This document shows positions 17,212 through 19,680 of a stretch of DNA of 64,000 bases, piece after piece (the first letter of the stretch is position 1; the number at the start of each line of letters is the position of its first letter). The notes beneath the pieces were generated by a model that did not search any database, was not told where the DNA came from, and saw nothing but the letters and a program-made list of their open reading frames with translations. A program made the position numbers and the translations under genes. Origin of the DNA: a bacterium (GTDB taxonomy: Bacteria > Patescibacteriota > Minisyncoccia > Phycocordibacterales > UBA6065); the NCBI GenBank assembly GCA_030680695.1, contig JAUXUT010000149.1:469768-533767 (forward strand), read 5' to 3'.

Positions 17212-17284
17212 TGCGCGTACTAGGATTTGAACCTAGGACCCCATCAGTATCAGTGATGTGCTCTACCAACTGAGCTATACGCGC
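17212..17284 (-). tRNA. tRNA-Ile (anticodon GAU)
   Basis: GCGCGTATAGCTCAGTTGGTAGAGCACATCACTGATACTGATGGGGTCCTAGGTTCAAATCCTAGTACGCGCA folds as cloverleaf: 7-bp acceptor, GCTC/GAGC D-stem, CATCA/TGATG anticodon stem, loop CUGAUAC, TPsiC loop UUCAAAU; CCA not encoded. Confidence 0.9.
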
Positions 17285-17352
17285 ATATGTTTTGGACCTG
17301 TCTATATGTCCCTGAGCCTCGAAAATATAGCAAAAACTAGTGCTTTCGGCAA

Positions 17353-17379
17353 TGAAAAGCCCCTGCATGTGCAGGGGCT
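17353..17379 (-). terminator. intrinsic terminator after small ORFs, upstream of tRNA-Ile
   Basis: plus gaaaa-gcccctgca-tg-tgcaggggc; U-run on minus strand. Confidence 0.5.
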
Positions 17380-17431
17380 CGTGCGACAGTGCTGGCTGTG
17401 CGGGTGGCGGTCGAGTAACGTCACCTGACGG

Positions 17432-17587
17432 TTACTTGACCGTAAAGACACCGAATTGATAAAGGAGCACGGTCGCGATGGCGAGAATCACGATGAGACT
17501 CGCCACGAGTGGCATAACAGGCTGTCCCGCGTCGGGGCGGCCCTTGTGCCACGGGTGGGGCGGTTGGACTGGGCTACGGTTGTGCAT
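17432..17587 (-). CDS. small single-TM protein (51 aa)
   Basis: Hand translation MHNRSPVQPPHPWHKGRPDAGQPVMPLVASLIVILAIATVLLYQFGVFTVK*; between 83-aa ORF and terminator; below track cutoff. Confidence 0.3.
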   Translation of the reverse strand: MHNRSPVQPPHPWHKGRPDAGQPVMPLVASLIVILAIATVLLYQFGVFTVK

Positions 17588-17686
17588 GGCAAGGTGTTTT
17601 CTCTACTCTACCCTCGTATCAGAAAAAGTAAAGGCGCCGGGCTGTGAAGCGGCGGCGCCATTTGGTTTGGAGAAATTTACCAGTGT

Positions 17687-17938
17687 TTACCGGTACGTGA
17701 CGGTGGGGGCATTCTCCAGCTGCTCTGCTTGCAGCTTGCTCTCCACCTCGATCTTCTGCTCCCTGCGGTCCTCTCGTTGGAACGCATATTCTAGGAGTAG
17801 AAAACCGACGACTGAAACCGCGATCCACAACGCTCCGATGGCAATGTGGCGCAGGATAGGGCGGACCGAGAACAGGGGTTTGTTTATCACCCGTTCGTAG
17901 TCCGATTTGAACGGTCCGACTGGGGTCGAGGTTCTCAT
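17687..17938 (-). CDS. small single-TM membrane protein (83 aa) with own consensus promoter, leaderless-type start
   Basis: ORF MRTSTPVGPFKSDYERVINKPLFSVRPILRHIAIGALWIAVSVVGFLLLEY...; ATG 9 nt after TATAAT. Confidence 0.45.
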   Translation of the reverse strand: MRTSTPVGPFKSDYERVINKPLFSVRPILRHIAIGALWIAVSVVGFLLLEYAFQREDRREQKIEVESKLQAEQLENAPTVTYR

Positions 17939-17947
17939 TTGTATCTA

Positions 17948-17975
17948 ATTATATCAAATTGACAGGATTTGTCAA
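17948..17975 (-). promoter_or_regulatory. consensus sigma70 promoter TTGACA-N16-TATAAT
   Basis: revcomp CATACTTGACAaatcctgtcaatttgaTATAATtagatacaaATG. Confidence 0.5.
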
Positions 17976-18004
17976 GTATGTCGAAACAACCCTACCCCAG
18001 ACAG

Positions 18005-18034
18005 CAAAAAACCGCTCTGTTGAGCGGTTTTTTG
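18005..18034. terminator. bidirectional intrinsic terminator immediately downstream of 16S rRNA
   Basis: caaaaaaccgctc-tgttg-agcggtttttt. Confidence 0.55.
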
Positions 18035-18175
18035 GAGGCCATATCGCATTCTATTTTGCCTCGTTCTTTTCGCCAGTTCTTCCCTGGCTTCCATGCAATT
18101 TAAGGTGTTTGCAAAACCCATATTAAATATGATCGACTCCGTAAGTTCCCTACCGAAGTAGGAGAACGGTTTTCA

Positions 18176-19680
18176 CTTGAAATAATCCACGAGCAGCTTC
18201 CGCTACCCGTGCCTTGTTACGACTTACTCCCTGTCATTGAGCTCGCCTTAGGCCGCGTGAGCAGACTTCGGGCGCTCCCAACTCCCTTGAGTTGACGGGC
18301 GGTGAGTACAAGACTTGAGAACGTATTCACCTCGGTATAGCTGACCCGAGATTACTAGCAAATCCAGCTTCAAGGAGTCGAGTTGCAGACTCCTATCCGG
18401 ACTAAGACATCCTTTATAACGATTGGCTCAGGGTCTCCCCGTCGCATCGCGTTGTAGATGCCATTGTATCACGTGTGTAGCCCAGGGTATCAGAGGGCCA
18501 TGCTGATCTGGCGTCATCCTCACCTTCCTCCCAGCTCTTTACTCACAATGGACACGCATTACTGCGGATTCATTATGCCCAAAGAGCTGGGCAGTCTCGG
18601 CTGACACTTGTAACAGCCAACGAGGGTTGCGTTCGTTACCCCACTGAAGGGAACAATTCAAATCACGAACTGACGACGACCATGCAGCACCTGCCTAATT
18701 GCCTTGCGGCGACAAACGTTTCTGCTTGTCTTCAACTAGGTTTCTAACCCTGGTAAGGTTCTTCGTTTACCGTCGAATTGAACCACATGATCCTCTGCTT
18801 GTGCAAGTCCCCGTCTATTCCTTTGAGTTTTAACCTTGCGGTCGTACTACCCAGGCGCTTCTCTTAACGCGTTAGCTACGCCACTCAGAGGGTCGATACT
18901 CCAAATAGCTAGAGAAGATCGTTTAGGGCGTGGACTACAGGGGTATCTAATCCCTTTCGCGACCCACGCTTTCATGTCTCAGTGTCAGGAATGCCCCAGT
19001 TACTTGCCTTCGCTTTTGGTGTTCCCCTAGATATCAACGCATTTCACCGCTACACCTAGAGTTCCAGTAACCCCTTGCATCCTCAAGTCTTGCCGTTTCC
19101 TTTGCATGCCCCCGGTTAAGCCGAAGAATTTAACAAAAGACTAACAAGACCACCTACACATCCTTTACGCCCAATGATTCCGGATAACGCTTGAGGCACT
19201 CGTATTACCGCTGCTGCTGGCACGAGTTTAGCAACCTCTTATTCATGAGACGATCAATAAACTTTCTATCTCATAAAAGCAGTTTACGTCCCGAAGGACT
19301 TCATCCTGCACGCGGCGTCGCTCCATCAGACTTTCGTCCATTGTGGAAGATTCTCGACTGCAGCCACCCGTAGGTGTATGGGCCGTGTCTCAGTCCCATC
19401 GGTGGGGGTCACCCTCTCAGGTCCCCTAGGCGTCATAGCCTTGGTAAGCCGTTACCTTACCAACTAGCTGATACCGAGCAGGCCGATTTCCAAGCGATAA
19501 ATCTTTACCCCGGAGGGACTATCAAGTATTACCCCGTCTTTCGACGAGCTGTTCTTGACTTGGAAGTTCGTACCTACTTATTACTACCTCGTCTGCCGGT
19601 TGCCTTGCGGCCCCCTTGACTTGCATGCCTTATCCACGCCGCCAGCGTTCATCCTGAGCTAGGATCAAACTCTTGTTATA
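18176..19680 (-). rRNA. 16S ribosomal RNA (3' tail lacks canonical CCUCC anti-SD)
   Basis: 5' end: revcomp of 19654-19673 = AGAGTTTGATCCTAGCTCAG; 3' region contains AAGTCGTAACAAGG (revcomp of 18212-18225) and helix-45 CACGGGUAGC-GGAA-GCUGCUCGUG followed by GGAUUAUUUCAAG; length ~1.5 kb. Confidence 0.9.

Follow-up and report, generated by a model that had tools for sequence, protein, structure and literature searches.

In the canonical rrn operon, which serves here as the reference system, the 16S rRNA gene is followed by an internal transcribed spacer (ITS) with tRNA-Ile and tRNA-Ala and then by 23S and 5S, and the genes are co-transcribed with RNase III stems. Unlinked rRNA genes, defined by a distance of more than 1500 bp from 16S to the nearest 23S, are common and clade-conserved in Patescibacteria, the candidate phyla radiation (CPR) bacteria (Brewer et al., bioRxiv 10.1101/705046, later ISME J). 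The passages covered of Tsurumaki et al. (RNA 2022, PMC9297842) describe translation initiation without an anti-Shine-Dalgarno (anti-SD) sequence and without SD motifs in a subgroup of Parcubacteria.

The region between 16S and tRNA-Ile(GAU) was analyzed in a 64-kb stretch of DNA (GenBank GCA_030680695.1, contig JAUXUT010000149.1, positions 469,768 to 533,767), the whole of which is called the window. The source is a Patescibacteria/Paceibacteria metagenome-assembled genome near 'Ca. Taylorbacteria', of the Parcubacteria type within the CPR. Our preferred reading, to which we assign a probability of about 0.7, is that three separate transcription units stand in series on the minus strand, namely 16S, a cassette with two small open reading frames (ORF1 and ORF2), and tRNA-Ile. 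The original prediction had seen here a protein-coding unit that splits 16S from tRNA-Ile and had called it unusual. Its anatomy stood, the unit of promoter, ORF1 and terminator has the look of a real gene, and the unusualness did not hold for the clade.

The 16S and tRNA-Ile units

The features of the region are listed in the direction of transcription, with the 23S-5S unit last (aa, amino acids; TM, transmembrane).

20078–20105, minus strand: putative 16S promoter, TTGACC-N16-TATAAT, 11/12 in a consensus scan
19731–19744, minus strand: leader half of the 16S processing stem, GTTTTGTCTCGTTC, pairing with the trailer at 18066–18053
18175–19680, minus strand: 16S rRNA gene, full length (Rfam RF00177, 1331 bits, model positions 1–1533)
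18053–18066, minus strand: trailer half of the 16S processing stem, GAACGAGGCAAAAT, within a conserved trailer of about 135 nt
18005–18034, minus strand: T1, predicted intrinsic terminator of the 16S unit, A6-CCGCTC-AACA-GAGCGG-T6, from direct folding
17948–17975, minus strand: P1, sigma-70 consensus promoter TTGACA-N16-(TGa)TATAAT, 12/12 in the consensus scan with a TG extension
17687–17938, minus strand: ORF1, 83 aa, predicted single TM helix at residues ~31–49 (NCBI Q8L64_06070, hypothetical)
~17623–17659, minus strand: T2, predicted terminator, hairpin GGCGCCG...CGGCGCC then UUUACUUUUU (fold z = -3.1; inverted repeat I9)
17432–17587, minus strand: ORF2, 51 aa, predicted C-terminal TM helix (NCBI Q8L64_06065, hypothetical)
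17350–17379, minus strand: T3, predicted terminator, hairpin AGCCCCTGCA/TGCAGGGGCT then TTTTCATT (fold z = -3.65; inverted repeat I4)
17324–17352, minus strand: tRNA-Ile promoter with an extended -10, TTGCCG-N17-(TGc)TATATT, from the consensus scan
17211–17284, minus strand: tRNA-Ile(GAU), from ARAGORN and Rfam
45147–48709, minus strand: 23S-5S unit, with 23S at 45390–48709 and 5S at 45147–45254, from Rfam

The elements named in the original prediction were recovered. These were the minus-strand 16S, the bidirectional terminator at 18005–18034, the promoter at 17948–17975, the 83-aa single-TM ORF whose ATG follows the -10 by 9 nt, the 51-aa single-TM ORF, a second terminator at 17353–17379, and tRNA-Ile. 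The 23S-5S unit, predicted to lie about 26 kb away, shares the strand of 16S and precedes it in the direction of transcription by 25.7 kb. The predicted lack of tRNA-Ala also agreed with ARAGORN, which found none in the 64 kb and gave tRNA-Leu(CAG) as the only other tRNA. Three elements were added that had gone unnoticed: the 16S processing stem, T2 and the tRNA-Ile promoter.

These positions differ from those of an operon at each point compared. An operon would have 23S directly behind 16S, past an ITS no longer than ~1.5 kb, whereas here 23S-5S lies upstream at 25.7 kb, a distance that places the locus among unlinked rRNA genes. No terminator-free stretch joins 16S to the tRNA, because the predicted terminators T1, T2 and T3 all precede tRNA-Ile. 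The spacer holds tRNA-Ile alone, 890 nt past 16S, in place of the pair of tRNA-Ile and tRNA-Ala.

Relatives were collected with the pyruvate kinase gene (pyk) next to the locus as a probe, and the best genome matches were Patescibacteria/Paceibacteria. The closest GTDB species was L001 ('Ca. Taylorbacteria'), with a pyk identity of 86% and a 16S identity of 90.9%. The closest relative was L081, which has a 16S identity of 94.1% to the window and was found on a 519-kb contig in a scan of metagenomes that used the neighbouring 223-aa membrane protein as query. The comparison set comprised 82 related loci for tblastn, 80 GTDB loci for synteny, and 33 loci (32 from GTDB and L081) for spacer comparisons. 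Of the 80 GTDB loci, 32 had the order 16S, spacer, tRNA-Ile, pyk, and L081 had it too. An assembly artefact at the rRNA gene was rejected on the identical gene order in 33 independent assemblies, one of them the 519-kb contig. 23S was absent from the 21-kb L001 and L010 loci that hold 16S, so the unlinked state is kept in relatives.

On its sequence signals, 16S is a self-contained unit with a putative promoter, a leader/trailer stem and a conserved hairpin terminator. The leader/trailer duplex reached -70.9 kcal/mol compared to a shuffle mean of -50.7 (sd 5.4). Compensatory changes were present in L001, where the leader GTTCCGTTC pairs with the trailer GAACGGAAC. The stem ends just ahead of T1. 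The trailer showed 75–91% identity to L081, L001, L002 and L003, and in these relatives the homology past 16S ends just before T1.

T1 folded at -21 kcal/mol (z = -3.85). A T1-like A-tract, GC-hairpin and T-tract was found at the equivalent place in at least 23 relatives, with different stem sequences (CCGCTC, CCGCCC, CCTCGC, CCCGCAC and GCGCTCC among them). T1, T2 and T3 each have the hairpin and U-tract of a Rho-independent terminator and are predicted terminators by fold z-score. An automated terminator scan passed over all three, which were identified by direct folding instead; the A/T-extended stems probably absorb the T-run in the scan.

The tRNA-Ile promoter has the conserved element TGCTATATT. 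The motif TTTTTGCTATATT, exact or with one or two bases changed, precedes tRNA-Ile in at least nine relatives (L001, L002, L003, L013, L015, L019, L043, L052 and L081), and its distance to the tRNA is variable. In relatives with short spacers (269–395 nt), the tRNA-Ile promoter and the tRNA come immediately after the terminator.

As a separate observation, L006, L017, L023, L028 and L064 each have the 5' part of tRNA-Ile, together with upstream sequence, partially duplicated in tandem within the ~110 nt that precede the intact tRNA. In L007 and L054, tRNA-Ile is inverted relative to 16S. These duplications and inversions are signs of recurrent rearrangement at the junction.

The interval between T1 and tRNA-Ile in relatives

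The spacer ranged from 269 to 3631 nt across the 33 relatives, and homology between the window and its closest relatives breaks off at T1 and resumes at tRNA-Ile. A strong promoter was located within 110 nt past the terminator in 14 of 21 long-spacer relatives, counting those with an automatically located terminator, compared to 8 of 260 control windows. ORFs with an ATG start and at least 40 aa were then counted in the 33 spacers, and a TM-like segment was defined by a 19-residue window. Such segments occurred in 40 of the 82 co-oriented ORFs and in 0 of the 58 opposite-strand ORFs (Fisher p = 4e-12).

L081 shows the same arrangement as the window: past T1, a TTGACA promoter precedes a single-TM ORF of 84 aa, a terminator follows this ORF, and tRNA-Ile comes next behind its promoter. 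The 84-aa protein of L081 is unrelated to ORF1 at the equivalent position and is homologous to a 111-aa protein of L001 (phmmer 6.7e-8). P1 itself looks orthologous to the L001 and L081 promoters, with the same position and the shared GGGTTGT...TTGACAAA...TAGATACA. Other relatives hold genes with Pfam domains between 16S and the tRNA: DUF5684 (L003), a cell-wall hydrolase (L032), PG_binding_1 (L047), the pterin-4a-carbinolamine dehydratase domain Pterin_4a (L038), Gmad2 (L023), and a LAGLIDADG endonuclease (L034, at spacer positions 657–1355 past the 16S end). Some of these occupants are clearly bona fide genes.

At the level of sequence, this comparison demonstrated the signals, their conservation and the variability of what lies between them. 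The interval from T1 to the tRNA-Ile promoter is thus described as a class-wide variable gene slot, whose predicted occupants are mostly genes for small membrane or secreted proteins. The layout of the window is an ordinary inter-unit region and not an interrupted operon spacer, because the operon is dismantled, T1 and the tRNA-Ile promoter are conserved, and in the relatives the interval usually contains co-oriented genes, which differ between lineages. The original prediction's view of an unusual coding unit in the 16S-tRNA spacer therefore gives way to a layout that is ordinary for the clade.

A further-reaching reading would make the slot a cradle of new genes across the clade. A very strong promoter at a conserved position, immediately past the rRNA terminator, would transcribe fast-turnover sequence, and small membrane proteins would arise there de novo or diverge beyond recognition. 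ORF1, ORF2 and the unrelated analogues of 84 aa (L081) and 106 aa (L002) would be its examples. We consider this reading speculative and rather improbable.

ORF1 and ORF2 as candidate genes

ORF1 is probably a real gene: a perfect promoter precedes it at the spacing usual for leaderless genes in this genome, a terminator of its own follows, and it encodes a predicted TM helix. Perfect TTGACA-N16-18-TATAAT promoters occurred three times in the window compared to 0.01 expected from shuffles. The ATG of ORF1 lies 9 nt past the -10 box of P1 without a ribosome-binding site (RBS), which makes its predicted mRNA leaderless or nearly so. T2 lies between ORF1 and ORF2, 28 nt past the ORF1 stop. The N-terminus of ORF1 is basic, with a net charge of +4 before the TM helix, and its C-terminal tail is acidic.

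The translation signals of the window were consistent with this start. The 16S 3' end (18175–18190) is GGATTATTTCAAGT; it lacks the CCUCC anti-SD and is conserved in relatives. SD-like motifs were found at 2 of 50 window genes compared to a background of 11.8%. Based on just these 50 genes, -10-like boxes 4–14 nt before the ATG were enriched about 4-fold, with 16 at the 50 ATGs. Leaderless or near-leaderless mRNAs thus appear to be the norm in the window's genes. Because such boxes are enriched at these distances, the 9-nt spacing of ORF1 matches the local norm. The absence of an RBS and the start so close to the -10 element are explained by the loss of anti-SD and SD motifs in this genome. 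ORF1 has the -10 element a few nucleotides before the start and no SD motif, as expected for a leaderless gene.

Coding statistics were compared with 126 spurious ORFs, which are wrong frames of real genes. Codon log-odds were 0.09 for ORF1 and 0.188 for ORF2, in each case the best among six frames, and the ORF2 score was matched by 5 of the 126. The hydrophobicity of neither ORF1 nor ORF2 was reached by any of the 126. GC content at the second codon position (GC2) was ~0.40 in both ORFs, the same as in real genes. The spacer of the window is not T-rich, so composition is not the cause of the TM segments.

Several results weigh against a protein-coding cassette. The codon score of ORF1 stands at the 8.6th percentile of real genes and was matched by 17 of the 126 spurious ORFs (13%). 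GC content at the third codon position (GC3) was 0.72–0.73 in ORF1 and ORF2 compared to 0.52–0.57 in the window's genes. ORF2 stands behind T2, and its best candidate promoter scored just 8/12. In a word-indexed search of 5.8 billion clustered proteins, both ORFs returned self-hits only, namely the hypothetical proteins annotated by NCBI on a 649-kb contig. An exhaustive phmmer search over 1.84 billion representatives added one repeat artefact, the 1179-aa tandem-repeat protein P0003, which was rejected as a homologue. ORF1 had no match in JGI metagenome contigs, and an exact-sequence contig look-up was negative. Neither ORF had a homologue in Pfam or PHROGs, or a tblastn match in the 82 related loci, L081 (16S 94%) included. 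The original prediction had proposed conservation in relatives as a check by tblastn, and neither ORF proved conserved in any relative or database, which is one of the two outcomes that it had named as counting jointly against its view.

Smith-Waterman z-scores between ORF1 or ORF2 and the positional analogues in relatives were no better than those of reversed-sequence controls. The best a-priori candidate, the 106-aa analogue of L002, gave an uncorrected p of ~0.02 against ORF1, which is not significant, and is itself an orphan. ORF1 and ORF2 therefore do not form a conserved protein family, as no homologues were detectable. Frameshifted descent from the 'DWWWI' gene of L081/L001 or from the L015/L034 gene was rejected, with no tblastn match in 17.3–18.0 kb. 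An antisense ORF of 140 aa at 17478–17900 on the plus strand was rejected as well, with a codon log-odds of -0.24 and no TM segment. A known non-coding RNA in the spacer was also set aside, as Rfam gave sub-threshold matches only, driven by the terminator hairpins.

These results bear on the possibility that ORF1 and ORF2 are not genes. P1 would then give a non-coding transcript or serve tRNA-Ile as a second, upstream promoter by way of leaky terminators, and the open frames and hydrophobic stretches would be accidents of a fast-evolving spacer. The missing homologues, the codon score of ORF1 and the atypical GC3 all fit this explanation. In L001, moreover, the apparent orthologue of P1 is followed by a low-complexity 68-aa ORF without a TM segment, non-coding in appearance. 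Against it stand a TM hydrophobicity unreached among the spurious ORFs, the position of the ATG, which follows a perfect -10 box at the spacing typical of leaderless genes in this genome, and T2 28 nt after the ORF1 stop. The TM ORFs of relatives' spacers are co-oriented only, tRNA-Ile has its own conserved promoter, and no Rfam family was matched. We judge the non-coding explanation to be unlikely.

The same GC3 difference from neighbouring genes, together with homology to the closest relatives that is interrupted between T1 and the tRNA, could also point to a recent horizontal insertion. In this case the segment from P1 to T3 would be a mobile-element remnant or foreign DNA beside a tRNA gene. 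A direct repeat of 17 nt (82%) between the tRNA 3' part (17216–17232) and ORF1 (17896–17912) and the partial tRNA-Ile 5' duplications in the slot of several relatives would agree with it. However, this repeat does not rise above chance level, integration at a tRNA 3' end would have placed it on the other side, and no att repeat was found beyond it. The cassette region has no integrase ORF, transposase or inverted terminal repeats, and there was no match in phage or plasmid collections or in PHROGs. P1 is also apparently orthologous to the L001/L081 promoter. An insertion is accordingly rated as very improbable.

A type I toxin-antitoxin-like module, with ORF2 or ORF1 as a toxin controlled by antisense RNA, was considered because ORF2 is an intergenic 51-aa single-TM hydrophobic orphan with strong transcription signals nearby. 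ORF1 had a weak, non-significant PHROG match to a holin (E = 0.018). However, no plus-strand promoter-like site for an antisense or overlapping small RNA was found within 17290–18000, and no RNA family was matched. Furthermore, the 83 aa of ORF1 with long charged tails are atypical for type I toxins, and no repeats or duplicate copies were present in the window. The chance of such a module appears minimal. Taken together, the non-coding, insertion and toxin explanations are weakly supported or unsupported.

In the reading of three units in series, a monocistronic 16S with its own promoter and processing stem would end at T1. P1 would then fire a leaderless or near-leaderless mRNA for ORF1, and ribosomes without an anti-SD would initiate at its 5' AUG. 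The product would insert as a single-pass membrane protein with the N-terminus inside, following the positive-inside rule, and the transcript would end at T2. ORF2 would be expressed only by read-through of T2 or from a weak promoter, with its transcript ending at T3. T3 would insulate the tRNA-Ile promoter, and tRNA-Ile(GAU) would be made as the third unit from its own conserved extended -10 promoter. ORF1 and ORF2 would be lineage-specific orphans that occupy the slot. From these signals we infer transcription and translation of both ORFs, their membrane topology, and no read-through into tRNA-Ile. Expression of ORF1 as a protein seems reasonably likely, and for ORF2 the odds are about even.

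The 23S-5S locus and comparison with known systems

Ahead of the 23S-5S unit, a promoter-like TTGACT-N16-TATACT was located at about 49049–49022. A group I intron lies within the 23S gene at 45794–46098 (Rfam RF00028, 63.8 bits); CPR bacteria are known to have insertions in their rRNA genes. In the 16S of L002 (1–1406), the Rfam match stops at 492 and an insertion of ~840 nt near the 3' end is apparent; the conserved 3' terminus and trailer align at 1331–1549.

Directly past 5S come a hairpin terminator (~45131–45092) and then, at 45053–45025, another promoter with perfect consensus. Two of the three perfect promoters of the window thus directly follow rRNA-unit terminators, and both start TTGACAAAT. 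A candidate small RNA of ~69 nt (~45018–44950) has its own terminator at the end and no Rfam match. A long near-perfect inverted repeat at 44809–44936 (AAAGAAAGGGACGTTGTATACAGCC ... GGCTGTATACACCGTCCCTCTTTCC) with an inner palindrome sits just upstream of a leaderless-looking gene (44036–44791, 251 aa, no Pfam match).

Elsewhere in the window, GC content changes from ~0.52 (1–19 kb) to ~0.44 (20–34 kb). The drop coincides with the upstream end of the 16S unit (~19700–21000) and may mark the edge of a compositionally distinct segment. A LOOT RNA motif (RF03000, 83.4 bits) lies at 33091–33205 on the plus strand, between the genes 32330–33019 and 33260–33916. The tRNA-Leu(CAG) at 35566–35648 on the minus strand overlaps ~50 nt of the 3' end of the plus-strand ORF 34221–35615 as mechanically called.

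ORF1 and ORF2 resemble the orphan small membrane proteins and 'hypothetical proteins' of CPR bacteria, being short, single-TM, without detectable homologues and annotated as hypothetical by NCBI. Unlike generic CPR orphans, they fill a slot whose position past the 16S terminator is conserved and in which relatives hold non-homologous analogues. This anchored variable slot, with its strong promoter and orphan single-TM proteins, offers a comparative system for the origin and turnover of small membrane proteins in reduced, symbiotic genomes. If the cradle reading were true, it would be a natural, phylogenetically anchored system for small-protein birth in CPR bacteria.

The window also resembles the Parcubacteria subgroup described in the passages covered of Tsurumaki et al. 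(PMC9297842), as its 16S lacks CCUCC and its genes lack SD motifs. Those passages report the missing motif, and a 'leaderless' spacing between promoter and ATG was not found in them. ORF1 is a clean candidate for leaderless translation by ribosomes without an anti-SD.

As in the canonical rrn operon, tRNA-Ile(GAU) follows 16S on the same strand and a 16S leader/trailer stem is retained. In contrast to that operon, a predicted terminator follows 16S, tRNA-Ala is missing, 23S-5S lies far upstream, and tRNA-Ile has its own promoter. The stretch from 16S to tRNA-Ile in Paceibacteria would therefore be read as three units and not as an operon spacer. With three separate units, ITS typing and 16S-ITS-23S amplicons would fail or mislead in this clade.

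The closest likeness is to the unlinked rRNA genes of Brewer et al., where 16S and 23S are likewise far apart and the state is conserved in relatives. That classification was made by distance alone, whereas the analysis of the window resolves the local anatomy. It adds a conserved 16S terminator, a tRNA-Ile with its own promoter that is still linked to 16S, and a variable slot between them, for which no description was found in the literature searched. Unlinked rRNA genes and anti-SD loss are already published, so the anatomy of the slot is a refinement of a known situation and not a new kind. The current understanding is not overturned, and what remains most interesting is the strong promoter at the head of a fast-turnover slot with unrelated small membrane proteins.

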